Positions 5,525-44,776 of a stretch of DNA of 44,776 nucleotides are shown here, piece by piece. The notes beneath the pieces were generated by a model that was given only the letters and a program-made list of their open reading frames with translations, made no database searches and was not told where the DNA came from. Location: the IMG/VR virus record IMGVR_UViG_2648501797_000002, positions 1-44,776 of that record. One strand, given 5' to 3'. The number at the start of each line of letters is the position of its first letter. Positions within the stretch are counted from its first letter, which is position 1. This DNA comes from a virus (Duplodnaviria; Heunggongvirae; Uroviricota; Caudoviricetes). The translations under genes and the position numbers were made by a program.

Positions 5525-6442
5525 CTACCAGTTCGGTAGCTCACGCAAAGAATACTTAGGCTTTCCATTACCTACCTGAGTGCAGAGGAATTTTGCAATA
5601 ACTTTTTCTCCGCGGTGATCGTTGATAATGTCTGGATTGTCTATGTAATTACTGATTTTCGCTACAAAAATTGATTTAGATTCATCATGCTCCATAATAA
5701 ACTCGCATTGACGTTTATGAGGAAGGGCTCCCAAGAAGCTAACTTCTAATAACTGCAAATCTTCTTTAACACTATCTTTACTTAGCTTGAGGACCGCTCT
5801 TTCAATATCATTGATATTGTTTGCAACAAGCGCTTGGTTGTTATGCCTTAAAGTAAAAGTTGCTTTGTTATCAAATAGTATTTGTATAAATCCACGTATT
5901 TTATCTAAAGCTCGGTCATCCAAATCACTAATCGCCTCAGCTAGACCATCATCGTCTCCCCTTATACTCATTTGCAGGATAGATTGAGTCTGGTTCAGAG
6001 CTTTTTGAACAGAAGATTCCTCATCAAAGTTAAGCGGGGCATCTGGCCTAAATTCCTCAAGTGTAAATCCAAAAGAACCTTTGGCTGTTCCAGTAATCAT
6101 AAGCAAATTATTTTCAAGATTTGGAATTTTACCTTTGGCCGGTAATTTCCCTGAAAATGAAGATGCAACATGAGAAACCGCATCATTAAAGGCGTTAACT
6201 ATTTTGGTTCCGAAATTTGCAGCTATGCCATATGTACCAAGTACAGGGGCTCCTCTAAATGTTAAAGTGGCTTTAACTGGCGGATGCTCATCGATAACAA
6301 TATGAGAAATCTCATCATTTAGCTCATGGAGCCTGCTTTCAAGGCTCATTTTGCCAATAATGTCATCATCAGTAGTGGTTTCTAAAAGAGACAGGATTGA
6401 GTCCCGCTCACTTAGAACGAACAAGTAATCGTCGCGATTCAT
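5525..6442 (-). CDS. Uncharacterized 305-aa protein, downstream partner of the NTase-fold gene
   Basis: AT-rich ORF, 4-nt overlap with the upstream gene; no motif recognised. Confidence 0.6.
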   Translation of the reverse strand: MNRDDYLFVLSERDSILSLLETTTDDDIIGKMSLESRLHELNDEISHIVIDEHPPVKATLTFRGAPVLGTYGIAANFGTKIVNAFNDAVSHVASSFSGKLPAKGKIPNLENNLLMITGTAKGSFGFTLEEFRPDAPLNFDEESSVQKALNQTQSILQMSIRGDDDGLAEAISDLDDRALDKIRGFIQILFDNKATFTLRHNNQALVANNINDIERAVLKLSKDSVKEDLQLLEVSFLGALPHKRQCEFIMEHDESKSIFVAKISNYIDNPDIINDHRGEKVIAKFLCTQVGNGKPKYSLRELPNW

Positions 6443-7026
6443 TGCTCACCTCCTTCTGATAGCATTGTTTCTAAAATGGTTAATGCCTGTTGATCCAGTG
6501 TAATATCTAGAGGAATCTGCAAGAATCCCTTCCATGTAAGATCCCTTCTATGAGACCACATACTGTACCAATATACAGTCCTTTCTACAAGCTGCTCCTT
6601 AGAAACGCCCAGTGACTGGAAGTAAGAATCAACTCTAAACTCTTGCTTTCTCCACTTACCCATATGTGGCACAAACAGATTCGGGTTACGCATAACGACA
6701 TCTTGCTGCGTTTCGTTAAACGCCAAATTAAAAAAAGTCACAACATCAATGTCATTTGGCGGACGTTTTTCAATGAGTTCAACATCTTCTATGAAACTAC
6801 CATCGATCCATTGAAAACCATCCGTTAACCCAGTTTTATTAATTTCTTTACGAAATTTGATGAAACCGAGTAAGATCTCGATCCTTTGTGGGCTTGTAGC
6901 GTACCGCTCTACAAATTTTAATATATCTGTCTTATATGGGGAGCGATAGGCGCTGGTTGGATGCTCCATATCCATTGGTGGGATTACACCAATTTCATTC
7001 CAGTTAGGAATTTCCTGAATCACCAT
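6439..7026 (-). CDS. Predicted nucleotidyltransferase-fold protein (195 aa)
   Basis: GS...DxD pattern (IDGSFIEDVELIEKRPPNDIDVV) consistent with a Pol-beta-type minimal nucleotidyltransferase; AT-rich. Confidence 0.5.
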   Translation of the reverse strand: MVIQEIPNWNEIGVIPPMDMEHPTSAYRSPYKTDILKFVERYATSPQRIEILLGFIKFRKEINKTGLTDGFQWIDGSFIEDVELIEKRPPNDIDVVTFFNLAFNETQQDVVMRNPNLFVPHMGKWRKQEFRVDSYFQSLGVSKEQLVERTVYWYSMWSHRRDLTWKGFLQIPLDITLDQQALTILETMLSEGGEQ

Positions 7027-7336: not shown

Positions 7337-8047
7337 TCACACAAGCCTTAACTTAGTTTCTACGGCCACACCAATGATTCGACAGTTTCCGTTGATGGGA
7401 ACCAATGGCCATTGAGGGTTTAAGCCCTTCAGGTACTTCTGGTCACCATCAATGATCAGTTTTTTGAATGTCGCCTCGTTTGATTCCGAGAGTTTTGCAA
7501 TAACGAGACTTCCGTTGACCGGCTCCCTTCCGGTATCAAAAAGAACATATGTACCCTCTGGTATGCTGAGCCCGACCGGGGCAGTCATGGATTCCCCCTC
7601 GACCAACAACCAGAACGCATCCCCCTGGATGTGAGCGTCTGATTCGAGCCATAGATCGATATCTTTAAGTGCATACGGCTCGCACGCTTCCGACCAATGC
7701 CCAGCCTGAATCTTGCTTAATACAGGGTATTTAATGCCTGGGGTGTACTGGCCTACATACTTGGCATTCGATGTAGCGGCAGCACTCATTGCAGATATTT
7801 CTTTCGCAAGGCTGGGGCTAAAATCAGAGACATCCACCTGGAGGGCTCTGGCAAAAACAGCAGCCACGGCAGCATTAAGGGCATTCCTGCCATTCAAGTA
7901 ATGCCCAACGCCACCCTGAGATATGTCTAGCATGTCAGCTATTGATTGCTGTGTTATCCCAAGCTCTTTTTTCTTGGCTTCATAGAGGGCTTTCAGCCTT
8001 TCTGCGTCAGCGATCTGAGCCGATGTCAGTGTCTTTTTCTTTTCCAT
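7337..8047 (-). CDS. cI: CI-like prophage repressor (HTH plus S24 LexA-like autopeptidase domain)
   Basis: N-terminal HTH (ITQQSIADMLDISQGGVGHYLNG); C-terminal ESMTAP serine motif and FKKL lysine motif like lambda CI; start at ATG 8047, close to the operators. Confidence 0.85.
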   Translation of the reverse strand: MEKKKTLTSAQIADAERLKALYEAKKKELGITQQSIADMLDISQGGVGHYLNGRNALNAAVAAVFARALQVDVSDFSPSLAKEISAMSAAATSNAKYVGQYTPGIKYPVLSKIQAGHWSEACEPYALKDIDLWLESDAHIQGDAFWLLVEGESMTAPVGLSIPEGTYVLFDTGREPVNGSLVIAKLSESNEATFKKLIIDGDQKYLKGLNPQWPLVPINGNCRIIGVAVETKLRLV

Positions 8048-15805: not shown

Positions 15806-15880
15806 GCATCTGTCGTAGTTTGGTAATTACATCTGGCTTCCAACCAGAAAATGCGGGTTCGATCCCCGCCAGATGCTCCA
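15806..15880 (+). tRNA. Phage-encoded tRNA-Gly (anticodon UCC)
   Basis: 75-nt cloverleaf folded by hand: 7-bp acceptor stem, D-loop with GG, anticodon loop CUUCCAA, T-arm GCGGG-TTCGATC-CCCGC, discriminator U, CCA end. Confidence 0.75.
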
Positions 15881-37706: not shown

Positions 37707-39857
37707 ATGAGTGAATACGATACCGGCAATCCTGTGCCGTCTGCATCCATGCCTGATGCATGGGATAATATGCAGTCTATTGACAAGTTCGTTAATAGCA
37801 GTGATGAAACCATTACCACACGCACAGGCAAACAGTTAGATACTTTGCATGGCGTTAATGTTAAGGCGGACAACCAGCTAACGCAGCAGCAAGCAGACTT
37901 TGAAACCTCGCAAGAAGAAAGGGATGCTGTAGTTGAGGAAACCAGGCAGAACCTGATCCCTCTGAGCAAGCAATACATGACGCTTGCTGATGCGCAGGCA
38001 GATATCGCAAATATCCCGGTGGGGTCTACCACGTATTACCGCAGTCCTGATGATAGCGCGCTGGCTATTGAAGTAATTAACAATGGTGGCACTCTTGAGC
38101 CCACCGGTAGAAAAATGCCATCTAAGAAGTATATAGATGATGAAATTGCTCCTTACTCCCCTTTGTTAAATATAACCCAAGCATCAGAATTCTTTTCCTC
38201 TGATGAATATAAAGATTCTGGGGTCGAAGAGGCTATATTAGATGAAAATAAAAAAACACTACTATCCAGAAAAGGCGCTGAGTGGTTTTTTCAAAAAATA
38301 ATAGCGGGAGAAATCAGCGCAGATGAATTTTCTGCCGAAATCCTTTCAGGTAATGACATTTTGATTTCCGGGCAGAGCCTTCTTGGAATCGTTCCTTTTT
38401 TACAGGCTTCGACATTTGTCGATATATCTGAATTTTCGGATTCGGGGTATGATTCCGCAACTTTTTCTGAAAACAATAGAATCATTGTTGGCATTAAAGG
38501 GACCACCCTTTATTTTAGCAAAATTGTCGTTGGTGATGCTGTAATTGAAGGAAGCGATTTTACAGAGGTAAAGGGTGTTACTGACGCATTATCACCTCTT
38601 CCAGAGTCAGTAACATTTCTCTCACCTGATGAGTATGCAGATAGTGGATACATTTCGGCATCCACATCTGAAAACCTGGTTGTTATCGAGTCGCTGAAAT
38701 CATCGGACCTGACAAACTCAGGTCATCCTGATTACATTGCATTTAGCGAAGAGAAAGGAGGCTATGAGCAGATTTTCCTGTTTGATCGCGATACAGGTCA
38801 GCAGGTTCGTGTAACCAATACATCCAGTAATGAAACCCTGCCACGCGTTGATGGTGATAAGGTTATCTGGCAATCGGACAGGGAGACTAATCGCGCACCG
38901 GGTGGGCAGTATTATTGCTATATCAGTGATCTGACTGAGCACTCTGTAATGTCCAGGCCGATCATTTGCGGGTGGGGCCATTCAATGGTTGACAACCCCC
39001 GTATGCTGACACGCCTGCAGGAGCTAACCGGATACACGGCCTATAACTTTGGCAAAAGCTCACGCACAAGCGTTGGCACAGCTGCTGCTCAGGGTGGGCG
39101 CAGAGCGTATTACGTTCCAGTTGGCGGCAGCATTCCTGCCAGCGGTTCGGTAACTCTTTCTCCGGCAAACCCGGGGCCACTGAGTTATTTTGCCAACGCC
39201 GCAGCATCGACGCCGTTCCACGGTTCTCTGGCTGGCATTCCAGGCAATTTTGCATGGGATGGAACGAATGCCACATTTACCCGTGATGCATCTGGTGATG
39301 CGGTTAGCGTACCTGTTGCCGTGCCATTCATTTGTGATCCGGTGACCACTGGCGCTATTACCGGAGGCATTCCGGCAGGAACATCTTTCCCTCTTCACCC
39401 TGAATGTATAAATATTTTCTGGATGGGAAGGAATAATATTAGCCAGTCAATGCAGGTTCTCAGCGACACTATTGGTGTAGTTGAATACCTTAAATCTCTT
39501 GGGCAGAAGGTTATTATCCTGCCTGATTTTAACAGCAGTGTTGAGCCCCGTGGATCAGCAGGTTATGCAAACGTCATGTTATCAAACAGCATGATTAAAA
39601 AGAAATACCCTGAGTTATGGTGCGAAATTGATAGTGTTGATATGAGGGAAAACTTCGTAAACAACTATAATCCAGCATATTCTCAGGACGTTTCTGACTT
39701 TGGAAATGATATCCCTCCAACTTCATTGAAGTATGACGGACTGCATCCTAGCCAATCGAAAGAAACATCTAACGCCCCTGAATATGCATTGCAGGCTGGC
39801 GCGGACGTAAACGCTGAATTTATTTACCAGAAATTTCAATTATTAGGGTGGGTGTAA
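37707..39857 (+). CDS. Tailspike/receptor-binding protein with central PD40-like beta-propeller region and C-terminal SGNH/GDSL-type esterase domain
   Basis: C-terminal DGLHPS block-V-like motif and GWGHSM block-I-like motif; central YIAFSE...DGDKVIWQSDRE resembles TolB-type PD40 repeats; AT-rich 5' half. Confidence 0.55.
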   Translation: MSEYDTGNPVPSASMPDAWDNMQSIDKFVNSSDETITTRTGKQLDTLHGVNVKADNQLTQQQADFETSQEERDAVVEETRQNLIPLSKQYMTLADAQADIANIPVGSTTYYRSPDDSALAIEVINNGGTLEPTGRKMPSKKYIDDEIAPYSPLLNITQASEFFSSDEYKDSGVEEAILDENKKTLLSRKGAEWFFQKIIAGEISADEFSAEILSGNDILISGQSLLGIVPFLQASTFVDISEFSDSGYDSATFSENNRIIVGIKGTTLYFSKIVVGDAVIEGSDFTEVKGVTDALSPLPESVTFLSPDEYADSGYISASTSENLVVIESLKSSDLTNSGHPDYIAFSEEKGGYEQIFLFDRDTGQQVRVTNTSSNETLPRVDGDKVIWQSDRETNRAPGGQYYCYISDLTEHSVMSRPIICGWGHSMVDNPRMLTRLQELTGYTAYNFGKSSRTSVGTAAAQGGRRAYYVPVGGSIPASGSVTLSPANPGPLSYFANAAASTPFHGSLAGIPGNFAWDGTNATFTRDASGDAVSVPVAVPFICDPVTTGAITGGIPAGTSFPLHPECINIFWMGRNNISQSMQVLSDTIGVVEYLKSLGQKVIILPDFNSSVEPRGSAGYANVMLSNSMIKKKYPELWCEIDSVDMRENFVNNYNPAYSQDVSDFGNDIPPTSLKYDGLHPSQSKETSNAPEYALQAGADVNAEFIYQKFQLLGWV

Positions 39858-39858
39858 A

Positions 39859-40662
39859 ATGGGTCCGTTTGAGAAACGAAATGGTGTAATTGCCACAACT
39901 GGAGATATTCTTTATCGTGATGGCTCTATAAATAGCGGAACGAAGGGATTAATTTCATGCCATAACACATGGTCTGGCGCTGGGGCAAACCTTGCCGCAG
40001 GAGCGCAGATAAAAAATATGTGCTACGTGAATGACCACGCAACAGCAAACTCAGTGCTTACCGCCGCAGGTGGTGGCTATGCCCTTAATTCAGTGCATGC
40101 TCAAGGCATCAATCTCCCGGCATCAATGATTGCTACATCAGGGATGACAAATTATCTGTATACGTTCTGGCTGAAAGTAACAGGTGCTGCTGCAGCTACT
40201 TCCAACTCATTCCTGGTGGCTCTGACAAATGGCACACCCAGTAACGCAGCGAACACGCTGTTTTGGCTGCGCCCGACATTCTCTTCAACAACTGCCGCGA
40301 GCGCATTGCAGGTGATTAACCACGGAGAGGTGATTAATGCGTACTCATTCCTGTCAGGGCTTTTTGATGGGAATGTCCACCAGGTTGCTGTTGAGCGCGT
40401 AGTTTCTTCTGATGGAACAATGCAGAAATCGCGCCTCTACCTTGATGGCGTACTGAAGTATGAGAGCTCATTCTCAGCGATTGTTGCTTATCCGGCAGCA
40501 ATTACTCTGGCGCGGCTGGGGGATGCTGAAATAACAACGACATCACTCTCGGTGAATGGTGGAGTGTATCGCTGTCGACTAGATGACCTGACGCTAACAA
40601 GTAAAAATGCCTTAGAGATTCTTTCAGATGACATCAACCTGGTTAATGGGCGCTATAGCTAA
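39859..40662 (+). CDS. Hypothetical protein downstream of tailspike
   Basis: 267-aa coupled ORF; Ala/Ser/Thr-rich. Confidence 0.4.
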   Translation: MGPFEKRNGVIATTGDILYRDGSINSGTKGLISCHNTWSGAGANLAAGAQIKNMCYVNDHATANSVLTAAGGGYALNSVHAQGINLPASMIATSGMTNYLYTFWLKVTGAAAATSNSFLVALTNGTPSNAANTLFWLRPTFSSTTAASALQVINHGEVINAYSFLSGLFDGNVHQVAVERVVSSDGTMQKSRLYLDGVLKYESSFSAIVAYPAAITLARLGDAEITTTSLSVNGGVYRCRLDDLTLTSKNALEILSDDINLVNGRYS

Positions 40663-40731
40663 AACAATAGTTTGCTACTGCCGCAGGGATTGATAGCCAC
40701 AACCAGCATTGATCTGCCACCAACTTAAAAT

Positions 40732-40751
40732 TACTGTATATAAAAACAGTG
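40732..40751 (+). promoter_or_regulatory. LexA (SOS) box TACTGTATATAAAAACAGTG overlapping a -10-like TATA element
   Basis: CTGT-N8-ACAG palindrome matching the LexA operator consensus, 17 nt upstream of the ATG at 40768. Confidence 0.7.
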
Positions 40752-40767
40752 TTTATGGGGGGAGATC

Positions 40768-41007
40768 ATGCTTCGACAGTCAGACATCACTGCGGCTTTC
40801 CGCGAGTCGGTTTTGCGCAGTTCCAAGGGGTTCCAGTACCTTCACACCAGAGACTTCGTTACCGCGCTGCGCCGGCGCGGCATCCATTTTTCCGAGGTGG
40901 AGGCGAACTCTTGGATCGCACGCGAGCAGACGTATTTCGTCGATAAGACGCCGGACCATAGCGAAAACAGGCTGTGGATGATGGCCAACATGGGGAGGGT
41001 GATCTAA
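40768..41007 (+). CDS. Hypothetical 79-aa protein, first gene of the SOS-box cassette
   Basis: Strong RBS GGGGGGAG; ends with TAATG overlap into the next gene. Confidence 0.5.
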   Translation: MLRQSDITAAFRESVLRSSKGFQYLHTRDFVTALRRRGIHFSEVEANSWIAREQTYFVDKTPDHSENRLWMMANMGRVI

Positions 41008-41324
41008 TGGGATTCCCTTCACCCGCGACGGACTACGTCGAGCAAAGGTTGTCTGTTAACTCGATCTGCAATGTCGGCCCAAACACGCTAGTTTTCGAGC
41101 GATCTGGTGGTTACGTTGTACTGGATATCTCCCTGAAGCCAAAGCAGGGTAGTCAGATTCTGATCCAACACGGCGGCGGGACGGAACTTGCCACGCTGAG
41201 AGGAAAGGCGCTGATTACTGAAGATGGTGAAGCGATCGATGGCGAAGCCCTGGACGATGTTACTGTCATCGGGGTCGTGACATTTACTATCTGCGATGTT
41301 CGTTCTGATAATTCTATTATTTAA
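41007..41324 (+). CDS. UmuD-like protein beginning at the UmuD-prime-equivalent position and lacking the catalytic Ser
   Basis: N-terminus MGFPSPATDYVEQRLSVN matches the UmuD segment after its self-cleavage site; C-terminal LDDVTVIGVV matches UmuD; the SGDSM region is replaced by SGG. Confidence 0.6.
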   Translation: MGFPSPATDYVEQRLSVNSICNVGPNTLVFERSGGYVVLDISLKPKQGSQILIQHGGGTELATLRGKALITEDGEAIDGEALDDVTVIGVVTFTICDVRSDNSII

Positions 41325-41335
41325 CTGGGGTATAT

Positions 41336-42367
41336 ATGGCGCTGAAGCTATTAGCCAATAATAACGCAAAGAGTGTGCTCGCTGCGGGTATTAGCGCGTC
41401 CGCTACCGTTATTACCGTGGGTACTGGAGCGGGGTCTTTATTCCCTTCCCCTGTATCTGGACAGAGCTATTTCAAATTAACGATAACCGATGCGGCGACG
41501 AAAACAATTTCTGAAATTATGCACGTTACGTCTGTATCCGGTGACGTGATGACAGTAATTCGTGGTCAGGAAGGAACTACGGCGCGCGTATGGTCAACGA
41601 ATGACATTGTCGCGAATTTAATGACCGCCGGATCATTATTATCTTTCCTGCAGATCAGTAATAACCTGTCAGAAATTAAAGACGCAGGACAGGATGCGGT
41701 AAATGAAGCCCGTTATAACCTCGGAATATCTGATTCCTCTGGTTTTGTCGGGCGTTCACTTGGCGCGCCAAAAACTTTCTATGCAAACGGAACCTATACG
41801 CGATCAGCGCTGGCCCGTTTTGCAAAAATAACGATGGTCGGAGGCGGCGGTGGTGGTGGTGGGTGCCAGGCCTCAAACAATACAGAAACCTTCTCCGGTG
41901 CCGGCGGCGGCGCGGGGGCGACCATTATCGTATGGGTTGACCTGTCTGCTGCCAGTTCTTATGCGATTACTGTCGGCAAGGGTGGTAAGGGCGGAGTTGG
42001 CGCAGTAAGTGGTGCGGATGGTGGGGCTACCTCGTTTGCCAGCCTGTTCTCAGCTCCTGGCGGGAAAGGTGGCGTGAAGTCAGGAGTGTCCAATACCGCC
42101 GGCGGCGCCGGAGGTACGGCTTCGTCCGGAGATATCAGGATCAACGGAGGTGCCGGCTCAGATGGACAGACAGGGTCAAGCCTTCTGACGGGCAACGGTG
42201 GGGCGTCGTATTTTGGCGGCGGTGGCCGGGCGGGTTCTCAGGCCGGTATTGCTGGCGCAGCTCCCGGATCCGGTGGTGGTGGCGCTTATGACCTTGGGTT
42301 TACCGGTACGGCATTTACCGGTGGTGATGGTGCTACTGGCATGGCGATCGTGGAAGAATTCGCGTAA
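41336..42367 (+). CDS. Glycine-rich fibre-like protein with C-terminal domain related to that of the 36582-37451 gene
   Basis: Gly-rich blocks (GGGGGGGGC..., GGKGGVGAVSG..., GGAGG...) and terminal ...GMAIVEEFA; 11 nt after the UmuD-like gene. Confidence 0.5.
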   Translation: MALKLLANNNAKSVLAAGISASATVITVGTGAGSLFPSPVSGQSYFKLTITDAATKTISEIMHVTSVSGDVMTVIRGQEGTTARVWSTNDIVANLMTAGSLLSFLQISNNLSEIKDAGQDAVNEARYNLGISDSSGFVGRSLGAPKTFYANGTYTRSALARFAKITMVGGGGGGGGCQASNNTETFSGAGGGAGATIIVWVDLSAASSYAITVGKGGKGGVGAVSGADGGATSFASLFSAPGGKGGVKSGVSNTAGGAGGTASSGDIRINGGAGSDGQTGSSLLTGNGGASYFGGGGRAGSQAGIAGAAPGSGGGGAYDLGFTGTAFTGGDGATGMAIVEEFA

Positions 42368-42371
42368 TGGC

Positions 42372-43568
42372 TTACTCTCCTGCGCGACCATCGATGTAAT
42401 CAGCCCACCACTGCATCATTTCTCTGCGCTTATCGAGATACTGAGCATGGTTGTAAATACCGCGCACAGATCCGCCGTTGGCATGTGCCAGCTGCACTTC
42501 AATAGCGTCAGCAGGCCATTCGTGCTCGTTCATAATCGTGCTGAATTCATGCCTGAATCCGTGACCGCTTTCCAGACCTTCATAGCCGATTTGTTTGATC
42601 ACAAGCAATACCGCGTTCTCGCAGATTGGCTTCTTCTTATCGTTGCGCCCGGCAAAAACAAACTCTGAGACTGGTTTGGTGATTGAGCTTAGCGTAGTGA
42701 GAAGTTCAACCACCTGGTCTGACATCGGGACCACATGAATTTTGCGTCCCTTCATCACACTGGCGTCGATGGTGATAATCCTGTTTTCAAAATCGACGTT
42801 CTTCCATAGCATGGAACGAAGCTCTTTTGTTCTTAGGGCTGTGTAGCGTAAAACTTTGGTCGCAATGAGCGATACGATACTTCCTGAAAATGTTGCAAGT
42901 GCTTTGTTGAATGCCGGGATCTGGTCGGCAGGTAAAAACGGGAAGTTCTTCTTGCGGTATCCCTTCATGGCGTCAGCAAGGTCAGGTGCCGGGTTATATT
43001 TAGCCCTACCAGTGACAATAGCGTAACGGAAAACCTCGCCGCATCTTCTGCGGGCTTTGTTGGCTCGCTCCATTGCACCGCGATCTTCAAATCTGCGGAT
43101 TACTTCCAGCAGTTGCATCGGCTCAATATCCTGAATCTCAAGACCGCCGATGATGGGTAAAATGTCGTCATCAAACATTTTGGCAAGTTCAGTTGCATAG
43201 CCTACTGACCAGACTTGCTTCTTGTGCTCGTACCATTCCTTGTAAATCGCACTAAATGAATTGTTGTTAGACGAAGCCTTTTTCGTCTTTACCGGATCGA
43301 TGCCAACCGAGATGTCTTTCCTCGCAGTCCATGCCTTATCCCTTGCTTCCTGCAAAGTCATAAGCGGATATTTTCCGACGGTCAGGATTTTCTCCTTACC
43401 GTCAATCTTGTAGCGAAGCTGCCATACCTTTTTCCCTGACACAGGGACATAAAGGTACAGGCCATTACCATCGAGAAGGCGGTATGGTTTTTCTTTCGGC
43501 TTTGCTGCTTCAATCTGCTTAACGGTGAGCATGGGTAAAAATCCGGTGGGTAAAATTATTTTATCCAC
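42372..43568 (-). CDS. intS: Tyrosine integrase (IntS-like)
   Basis: C-terminal HGFRHEF and tyrosine-containing motifs; adjacent to tRNA-Arg 3' end; symbol assigned from the argW-adjacent genomic context in E. coli. Confidence 0.85.
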   Translation of the reverse strand: MDKIILPTGFLPMLTVKQIEAAKPKEKPYRLLDGNGLYLYVPVSGKKVWQLRYKIDGKEKILTVGKYPLMTLQEARDKAWTARKDISVGIDPVKTKKASSNNNSFSAIYKEWYEHKKQVWSVGYATELAKMFDDDILPIIGGLEIQDIEPMQLLEVIRRFEDRGAMERANKARRRCGEVFRYAIVTGRAKYNPAPDLADAMKGYRKKNFPFLPADQIPAFNKALATFSGSIVSLIATKVLRYTALRTKELRSMLWKNVDFENRIITIDASVMKGRKIHVVPMSDQVVELLTTLSSITKPVSEFVFAGRNDKKKPICENAVLLVIKQIGYEGLESGHGFRHEFSTIMNEHEWPADAIEVQLAHANGGSVRGIYNHAQYLDKRREMMQWWADYIDGRAGE

Positions 43569-43693
43569 TTTTTACCCGTCATGGAGTGCGGCTGTCAACG
43601 ATCTGACGCGAACCATGACGAACTGTGAATCTACGGGAGGCTTGATATTCAGGGGATTTTGCGGACTGGTACGGATGGGAGCGAACTGATAAA

Positions 43694-43768
43694 TGGTGTC
43701 CCCTGCAGGAATCGAACCTGCAATTAGCCCTTAGGAGGGGCTCGTTATATCCATTTAACTAAGAGGAC
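43694..43768 (-). tRNA. argW: tRNA-Arg (anticodon CCU)
   Basis: 75-nt cloverleaf on the minus strand: acceptor GTCCTCT/AGGGGAC, anticodon loop CUCCUAA, T-arm GCAGGTTCGATTCCTGC, CCA end. Confidence 0.9.
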
Positions 43769-43843
43769 AATGCGGCATGAGTATACCCGCTAATGGAGTG
43801 CGGGGTAAGTACGCTGCCGCTCGATTGCTTAAACCCTCGCCAT

Positions 43844-44776
43844 TTATGCCGGGTTTTTATAATTTTTCTTAATGTTTTCCGCACGTTCTGCTTTTTGGCG
43901 TGCTTCTGCTTTACGCTTATTGCTCATGTCGTTACGAATCTGTGCATGACTCATTAACGCGAAGATAAAGGTGCCGCCGCAGATGTTCCCCGCTAAAGTA
44001 GGTAGTGCGAAGGGCCAGATGAAATCGCTCCAGTGCAGCGTACCGTTAAACACCAGATAGAGGATTTCAACAGAACCGACCACGATATGGGTGGTGTCAC
44101 CCAGGGCAATAAGCCAGGTCATCAATATAATCACCACAATCTTTGCCGCACCCGCTGCAGGAAACATCCAAACCATAGTGGCGATCAGCCAGCCGGAAAT
44201 GATCGCGTTGGCAAACATCTCGCTGGGGGTGTTCTTCATCACATCCATGCCGATTTTGACAAATGCATCGCGAGTTTCTTCATTGAAGATAGGCATATAT
44301 TCAAATGCCCACGCCGCAATACCTGTCCCGAGAATATTACCCAGCAGCACGACGCCCCATAACCGTATAAGTAAGCCGACGTTGCTCATTGTCGGTTTTT
44401 GCATGACGGGTAGTACCGCAGTCACGGTATTTTCGGTAAATAATTGCTGGCGGGCCATAATGACGATAATAAAACCAAAGGTATAACCGAGATTCTCCAG
44501 CAAGAAGCTGCCCGGCACACCTTCCAGTTCGACATGAAATATCCCTTTTGCCAGTAACGAAGCGCCCATCGACAGACCCGCCGCAATGGCTGACCACAGT
44601 AGCGCCATTGCGTCGCGTTCCAGCTCTTTTTCACCATCCTGGCGGATATGCTCATGAATTGCCATCGCCCGGGAGGGGAGTCGGTCTTCATCTATTTCTA
44701 TTTTTTTGCCGCGCTCTTTTTCTTCGCTCTCAACTTCAATTTCGTCGCTGTGTTGATCAATTTTGTCGTTGTCCAT
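43844..44776 (-). CDS. yfdC: Host inner-membrane protein, formate/nitrite transporter family (YfdC-like)
   Basis: 310-aa multi-pass membrane ORF adjacent to tRNA-Arg, as in the E. coli yfdC-argW-intS locus (recalled); start coincides with the window edge. Confidence 0.55.
   Translation of the reverse strand: MDNDKIDQHSDEIEVESEEKERGKKIEIDEDRLPSRAMAIHEHIRQDGEKELERDAMALLWSAIAAGLSMGASLLAKGIFHVELEGVPGSFLLENLGYTFGFIIVIMARQQLFTENTVTAVLPVMQKPTMSNVGLLIRLWGVVLLGNILGTGIAAWAFEYMPIFNEETRDAFVKIGMDVMKNTPSEMFANAIISGWLIATMVWMFPAAGAAKIVVIILMTWLIALGDTTHIVVGSVEILYLVFNGTLHWSDFIWPFALPTLAGNICGGTFIFALMSHAQIRNDMSNKRKAEARQKAERAENIKKNYKNPA

Follow-up and report, generated by a model that had tools for sequence, protein, structure and literature searches.

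RecA-mediated cleavage of UmuD leaves Gly25 as the N-terminus of the processed protein, and in impCAB-type operons homologues of UmuD and UmuC are preceded by a small first gene, whose product ImpC belongs to the DinI family. Temperate phages carry relatives of these genes: P1 encodes HumD, presented as a functional homologue of UmuD' in a title by McLenigan et al. (1999) that PMC4713147 cites, and LexA-controlled UmuD' analogues of temperate phages are a class already known from this phage. LexA-controlled prophage loci of other content are equally established in the Gifsy prophages, where one such operon comprises dinI, an antirepressor gene and irsA (PMC3121763). Here, a cassette from a virus of the Caudoviricetes is compared with these systems. 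It lies in the IMG/VR record IMGVR_UViG_2648501797_000002, all 44,776 nucleotides (nt) of which were analysed and are referred to as the window, at the tail-fibre/integrase end of what is recognisable as a lambdoid prophage of Klebsiella type. The cassette consists of a LexA box, a gene for an orphan protein of 79 amino acids (aa) with a predicted winged-helix fold, designated wH79, and a gene for a short UmuD'-like protein of 105 aa. It is probably a two-gene, LexA-repressed, HumD-like module (a moron), which would supply a pre-activated UmuD' to the UmuC of the host together with wH79 as a partner. The combination of a short UmuD' subtype devoid of the catalytic dyad with wH79 is uncharacterised to date, and literature searches found no paper on a wH79-UmuD' cassette.

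A LexA box in an umuDC-like control region

The LexA (SOS) operator TACTGTATATAAAAACAGTG occupies positions 40732..40751 of the plus strand and is followed after 16 nt by the start codon of wH79. A bare CTGT-N8-ACAG motif is not significant in the window: with 0.65 copies expected, two are present, and at least as many occur in 13 of 100 shuffles. The full 20-mer, with three mismatches to the gammaproteobacterial LexA consensus TACTGTATATATATACAGTA, is present in a single copy and was equalled in none of 100 shuffles. An earlier note, made from the letters of this DNA without database searches, had pointed to a near-consensus SOS box at this site and to its likeness to the umuDC operator. Both observations stand, the operator of Escherichia coli K-12 umuDC, read directly, being TACTGTATATAAAAACAGTA, to which the box of the window is identical at 19 of 20 positions.

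The resemblance reaches beyond the box, as about 90 nt align with the K-12 umuDC control region, including TTGATAGCC, the -35-like ATTGATCTGC, a gap of 14 nt, the operator and, ahead of the start codon, GGCAGAT. The upstream part of this shared region, delimited by alignment to the K-12 promoter and to related phages, spans 40689..40714 on the plus strand and contains the -35-like TTGATC at 40709-40714. This hexamer is kept in most related loci, and the layout TTGATC-N17-TACTGT also precedes umuDC-like operons throughout the Enterobacteriaceae. With TTGATC 17 nt upstream of TACTGT, the box overlaps a likely -10 element, as the earlier note had proposed, and we infer an umuDC-type promoter whose -10 region would be covered by LexA. 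The control region appears to be either derived from that of umuDC or convergent with it.

Related phages have retained this arrangement. In 14 phage loci, which account for 15 related arrangements, CTGT-N8-ACAG stands just upstream of a homologous cassette; beyond these, there were one locus with a degenerate box (phage BHUENT6) and one incomplete locus. In RothC, HK225, Eeyore, Midgardsormr38, LAU1, phiES15, HK140, mEp390, EhrS_59, P7641 and both cassettes of vB_EcoS-716R3, 19-38 nt separate the motif from the first cassette gene downstream, and it forms the best-conserved island of the intergenic region across relatives; the first-gene homologues behind these boxes are only 30-90% identical to the window protein. 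The box is also found directly upstream of solo UmuD'-type genes (Kp4872-1 and ST11-OXA245phi3.2) and of P1 humD, where the GenBank record of P1 annotates it as a LexA binding site.

Some loci deviate from this pattern. In the Enterobacter phage BHUENT6 (locus L106, ~760-800), the right half ACAGT is retained upstream of wH79 and the left CTGT is lost, which suggests that this cassette may be expressed constitutively or regulated otherwise. In the Escherichia phage vB_EcoS-716R3 (L104, 254-2200) and the Klebsiella phage ST15-VIM1phi2.1 (L103, 1-800), a group II intron is inserted precisely where the LexA box ends on its 3' side, before the ribosome-binding site of wH79; it was recognised by a match to Rfam RF02005 (184 bits; L104, 306-531), and its reverse transcriptase is annotated as 'retron-type'. 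Since an intron in this place requires sense transcription, its position agrees with transcription beginning inside the box or immediately behind it. vB_EcoS-716R3 harbours two tandem cassettes (L104, 254-2432 and 3508-4114), one of them decayed to box, intron and a truncated wH79, the other intact, in which wH79 is of a different subtype and the short UmuD' gene starts with GTG. This second wH79 was missed by tblastn with the window protein, so that the co-occurrence of wH79 and UmuD' is under-counted. In HK225, HK140, mEp390 and Eeyore (L002, 2662-2949; L011, 910-1176; L101, 448-714; L003, 2638-3120), a DinI-like gene and wH79 are divergently transcribed from a shared LexA-box intergenic region, an arrangement of these E. 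coli phages that the lxr/humD pair of P1 resembles.

The short UmuD'-like protein and its link to UmuC

The second gene of the cassette (41007..41324, plus strand) is coupled to the first as TAATG, the TAA of wH79 overlapping its ATG. The earlier note had called it UmuD-like, which the searches support in part: the 105-aa protein matches the PHROG family phrog_3469 ('UmuD-like', 1.5e-45) and UmuD/UmuD' entries of the PDB, and along its full length it shares 33% identity with P1 HumD (E 2e-13). In an alignment of UmuD, HumD and seven phage homologues, the phage proteins all begin with M-GFPSPA, exactly at Gly25 of UmuD. The short type is without 12 residues present in both UmuD and HumD, among them the loop of the catalytic Ser60, and the window protein has Ala at the position of Lys97; with the loop gone and the Lys replaced, it is not expected to be a peptidase, and the database name 'S24/S26 family peptidase' is misleading where the Ser/Lys dyad is missing. 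By this alignment, the protein is a pre-processed, catalytically dead UmuD' analogue. Databases also misname it 'UV protection protein' or 'repressor protein CI', and the defence models of PADLOC match neither of the two cassette proteins.

The genomic surroundings of UmuC point to a function for this subtype. Species-representative genomes were scanned with E. coli UmuC, and the 80 loci listed were searched locally for cassette genes. In Enterobacter hormaechei B56 (L051, 1163-2769) and E. pasteurii (L055, 1164-2769), short UmuD' genes 42-43% identical to that of the window occupy the umuD position of umuC operons, behind a LexA box and with a stop codon that overlaps the umuC start. No evidence speaks more strongly than such linkage of short UmuD' genes to umuC for the short type as a possible true partner of UmuC, a reading also supported by the reported standing of P1 HumD as a functional UmuD' homologue. 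In other loci, a short UmuD' gene with its own LexA box lies just upstream of a complete umuDC (L049, L040 and L066) or between umuDC and an integrase gene (L076), and in Cedecea (L067) a gene of the HumD type precedes umuC. Phage tail or integrase genes flank some of these loci. Among the matches listed, UmuC was found in Klebsiella sp., K. oxytoca, Raoultella and Enterobacter.

The retention of a UmuD-like N-terminal arm and core together with the loss of Ser60 and Lys97, which makes processing impossible, would also suit a modulator of activated RecA and of the SOS response. In such a role, the UmuD'-like protein, with or without wH79, would lie in the groove of the RecA filament, at the site used by LexA, CI and UmuD, and would damp or time the co-protease in the manner of DinI, thereby tuning both the induction of the prophage and the SOS response of its host. 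Among PDB entries, the UmuD entry 8gmt, presumably a complex with the RecA filament, is the best sequence match of the 105-aa protein; a DinI-like gene shares the LexA-box region with wH79 in HK225, HK140, mEp390 and Eeyore; and the wing and helix 3 of wH79 are acidic, a character seen more typically in DNA mimics or in proteins that bind other proteins than in DNA-binding ones. Nevertheless, this alternative is unlikely, given that the umuD position of short UmuD' genes in umuC operons speaks for a role in DNA polymerase V (Pol V), that P1 HumD, going by the reference cited in PMC4713147, acts positively in mutagenesis, and that wH79 shows no sequence similarity to families of the DinI type. 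The emphasis of the earlier note on an antirepressor-like or SOS-modulating module is displaced by a genomic context that favours a UmuC partner of the HumD/UmuD' type, and the notion of an antirepressor or RecA modulator is a possible one for wH79 alone.

The wH79 family

wH79 is encoded at 40768..41007 on the plus strand, with a purine-rich, Shine-Dalgarno-like GGGGGGAG upstream, in keeping with the earlier description of a strongly initiated open reading frame (ORF). Substitutions between homologues fall mostly on the third codon position (186:102:646), the substitution patterns of both cassette genes indicate purifying selection, and the length is steady at 79-80 aa down to ~30% identity; judged by these patterns, wH79 is a real gene. 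The homology search that the earlier note had proposed for this protein revealed an orphan family: an exhaustive HMMER search of 1.84 billion representatives returned just 75 clusters, all of small proteins, and the named members all come from Enterobacterales. The family corresponds to phrog_3893, a PHROG of unknown function. No sequence match was obtained in Pfam, NCBIfam, PADLOC or the PDB, a PDB profile search gave nothing below E 0.3, and in a search of a viral structure library only the family itself (HK225) was matched. Some database records name the protein 'DNA polymerase V' (Erwinia, Pantoea and Salmonella) or 'putative invertase' (some Klebsiella).

Several candidate relatives were considered. 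A DinI/ImpC-like identity was rejected for want of profile matches, as Pfam, the DinI family profile included, gave no match beyond noise with wH79 or with 44 homologues. Lxr of P1 was rejected as a homologue too, lxr being a 190-aa gene divergent from humD and P1 having no tblastn match to wH79.

From an alignment of 45 sequences, AlphaFold2 produced a confident model of wH79 (predicted local distance difference test, pLDDT, 90.5) with the winged-helix topology H1-b1-H2-H3-b2-b3. A winged helix followed by an S24-like core is the domain order of LexA and UmuDAb, and the two proteins could accordingly be imagined as a split LexA-like regulator, in which wH79 and an S24-like dimerisation domain would form a non-cleavable DNA-binding repressor or activator. 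This is very improbable. Comparison with the profile of the LexA N-terminal domain gave an hhalign probability of 0.14%, by which wH79 was dismissed as a relative of that domain; the two parts are separate polypeptides, and UmuD' cassettes without wH79 exist. Furthermore, the alignments show conserved helix 3 (EAN-WI) and the wing (D-x-S/T-x-E-x-x-E) to be acidic, which would argue against DNA binding by wH79.

The pair of wH79 and UmuD' recurs across genera: in phages of Klebsiella, Escherichia, Enterobacter, Cronobacter and Erwinia, a UmuD'-type gene follows wH79 with overlapping or nearly adjacent stop and start codons, so that the TAATG coupling recorded in the earlier note holds for the window and has its counterpart elsewhere. 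In HK140, the partner of wH79 is of the long HumD type. Tentatively, wH79 may be an accessory factor of SOS mutagenesis that binds the UmuD' analogue and either prevents its degradation by host proteases or its pairing into heterodimers with uncleaved UmuD, or delivers it to host UmuC or RecA. Being restricted to Enterobacterales and tied to UmuD' analogues, this orphan family offers a concrete candidate for a hitherto unrecognised factor of SOS mutagenesis.

Proposed mode of action

In an undamaged lysogen, host LexA would sit on the operator over the -10 region of the umuDC-type promoter and keep the module off. Upon DNA damage, RecA would become active and LexA would cleave itself, giving rise to one transcript and two proteins, wH79 and, by stop/start coupling, the short UmuD' analogue. 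The latter would be made already 'cleaved' and without the Ser/Lys pair and, like P1 HumD, would most likely dimerise and join a UmuC of the host or of a plasmid to form a Pol V-like translesion polymerase, which could assemble without waiting for the slow RecA-dependent cleavage of UmuD. The outcome would be assistance to the replication of damaged host and phage DNA during induction and a rise in SOS mutagenesis. In this scheme, wH79 is most likely a protein-binding partner of the UmuD' analogue that perhaps stabilises or targets it, and this is the weakest step.

A number of observations weigh against this model. At the promoter, a generic scan called no promoter at the box. Regarding the UmuD' analogue, the NCBIfam HumD model reaches 1e-12 with 48 bits, against a cutoff of 120; Peptidase_S24 (PF00717), which P1 HumD does match, gives no match to the 105-aa protein even at E<=10; its AlphaFold2 model is poor (pLDDT 52.6), from a shallow alignment (at least 83% identity); and with 12 residues fewer than UmuD' and HumD, its pairing with UmuC is not assured. 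As for UmuC itself, there is no umuC within the window, and K. pneumoniae is not among the 80 UmuC loci listed. Finally, HK225 carries wH79 without UmuD', and wH79 occurs in none of the 80 umuC loci listed, so that it is not a general component of Pol V and may be linked to UmuD' by nothing more than co-transcription. Taken with the solo UmuD' cassettes, these last two facts make wH79 an optional add-on of phage cassettes that are devoid of umuC.

The third gene and the prophage end

The earlier note had drawn a three-gene cassette, of which two genes remain. A Gly-rich ORF of 343 aa (41336..42367, plus strand) does begin 11 nt after the 105-aa ORF; it matches PF21722 (Gly_rich_2) and tail-fibre PHROGs, and proteins annotated as tail fibres in Yersinia and Pantoea phages share 64-68% identity with its N-terminal 106 aa. 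Only close relatives have this gene after the cassette (PDP110P1, PDP110P2, RothC, RothD and, in part, Chronis). The commonest context in Klebsiella is tailspike, invertase, wH79, UmuD' and integrase, without the 343-aa gene, which is also missing in other genera. Judging from this comparison, the gene is structural and outside the conserved SOS module, and the three-gene operon was rejected as a functional unit on the same comparative grounds. No terminator was found between the cassette and the 343-aa gene, and SOS read-through into the latter is therefore possible. A second Gly-rich protein encoded in the window is not a close paralogue of this one.

All other features of the earlier note were likewise found at the positions it gave for them. 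The DNA closest to 40600-42400 belongs to Wanchaivirus PDP110P2 and Lambdavirus PDP110P1 (95%), followed by the Klebsiella phages RothC and RothD. The window terminates with an integrase gene, a tRNA gene and a host membrane-protein gene. The integrase (42372..43568, minus strand; Pfam Phage_integrase, Phage_int_M and Arm-DNA-bind_3) has an arm-binding domain of the P4 type and converges with the tail fibre gene (42367-42372), with 4 nt between the stops; in RothC, ~186 nt separate the tail fibre gene from int. The tRNA-Arg(CCT) gene (43694..43768, minus strand; ARAGORN and Rfam) is the probable attachment site at the prophage end and the sole RNA family in an Rfam scan of 40000-43900. As this att site is upstream of int (43569-43768), attP of the window phage would lie on the promoter side of int, unlike in RothC. 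A second, phage-borne tRNA gene, tRNA-Gly(TCC), is located inside the prophage at 15806-15880.

Upstream of the cassette, a tail fibre or spike protein of 716 aa (37707-39857) combines a conserved N-terminal anchor with matches to beta-propeller repeats, and its counterpart in related Klebsiella prophages has GDSL-lipase domains. DNA homology to related phages begins only at 40726, from which it appears that this host-range module is exchanged independently of the SOS cassette.

The prophage repressor and a second LexA-like box

The repressor of the prophage (7337..8047, minus strand) contains HTH_3 and Peptidase_S24 domains with QAG, GESMTAP and FKKL motifs and is of the CI type, in agreement with the earlier view that it appears self-cleavable and that the SOS operon is not obviously needed for induction: RecA-stimulated self-cleavage would induce the prophage without an antirepressor. 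An action in trans can nonetheless be conceived, wH79 being a LexA-controlled antirepressor directed against the non-cleavable repressor of a co-resident prophage, comparable to those of Gifsy/Fels-1, Tum of 186 and AntC of N15, with UmuD' merely co-expressed. wH79 is small and would be made from a LexA-repressed prophage promoter, HK225 retains it alone, and Fels-1 offers a precedent in which a prophage with a cleavable CI-type repressor has a LexA-controlled antirepressor acting on Gifsy repressors (PMC3121763). The proposal is improbable all the same, considering the cleavable repressor of the prophage itself, the almost invariable translational coupling of wH79 to a UmuD'/HumD gene, which includes two UmuD' subtypes, and the fact that no antirepressor family or fold match stands out for wH79.

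Just downstream of cI lie a DUF6932 gene (6439-7026, minus strand; PADLOC candidate PDC-M63A) and the gene for a 305-aa ORF without a family (5525-6442), in a slot that often holds defence genes expressed in the lysogen. A second LexA-like box, TACTGTACCAATATACAGTC (6561-6580), has an exact CTGT-N8-ACAG and four mismatches to the 20-mer consensus; it is situated inside the DUF6932 gene and ~120 nt upstream of the 305-aa ORF, the next on the minus strand.

Distribution and significance

The module is common: clusters of the 105-aa protein at 90% identity contain up to ~3,200 member sequences each, nearly all from Klebsiella, and cassette DNA is present in 207 of 5,426 complete E. coli genomes (~4%). 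Yet database records offer no more than the labels 'hypothetical', 'S24/S26 peptidase' and, in the case of the 79-aa protein, 'DNA polymerase V'. Should the module provide a ready-made UmuD', the prophages that carry it would bypass the safety delay by which error-prone Pol V is normally held in check, and clinical Klebsiella could thereby gain a larger supply of mutations under antibiotics that induce the SOS response, such as fluoroquinolones. Were wH79 in addition an accessory factor, prophages with the pair would raise damage-induced mutation in Klebsiella and E. coli independently of RecA-mediated cleavage of UmuD.

Comparison with known systems

With the LexA-controlled loci of the Gifsy prophages, Tum of 186 and AntC of N15 (PMC3121763), the cassette shares direct LexA control of a prophage locus that encodes small proteins; those systems have non-cleavable repressors that need an antirepressor, whereas the window has a cleavable CI and its small protein is tied to UmuD'. 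The chromosomal umuDC operons of Enterobacteriaceae have the same promoter/operator architecture and a homologous UmuD core. In contrast to them, the cassette has neither umuC nor the cleavable N-terminal 24 residues nor the catalytic dyad, and it has an additional 79-aa gene between the promoter and the UmuD' gene. impCAB resembles it in placing an ORF of ~80 aa before a UmuD-family gene within an SOS operon, but wH79, as a predicted winged helix without a DinI or other Pfam match, would be set apart from ImpC as the latter is generally described.

The short umuD' genes in umuC operons of Enterobacter (L051 and L055) and those beside umuDC (L049, L040, L066 and L076) are of the same short subtype, at ~40-45% identity, and lie behind a LexA box; there umuC is present and wH79 missing, and in the window the reverse is the case. 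The P1 humD locus, and with it gp26 of N15 and gp23 of phiKO2, offers the same plan in a temperate phage, a UmuD' analogue that starts with MGFPSPA, has no pro-peptide and lies directly behind a LexA box. HumD differs in its 129 aa and in the Ser and Lys at the catalytic positions, compared with 105 aa, no Ser loop and Ala for Lys in the window protein, and P1 has no wH79, its neighbouring lxr being a divergent and unrelated gene of 190 aa. Overall, the module is a relative of the P1 humD locus and not a new kind of induction switch.

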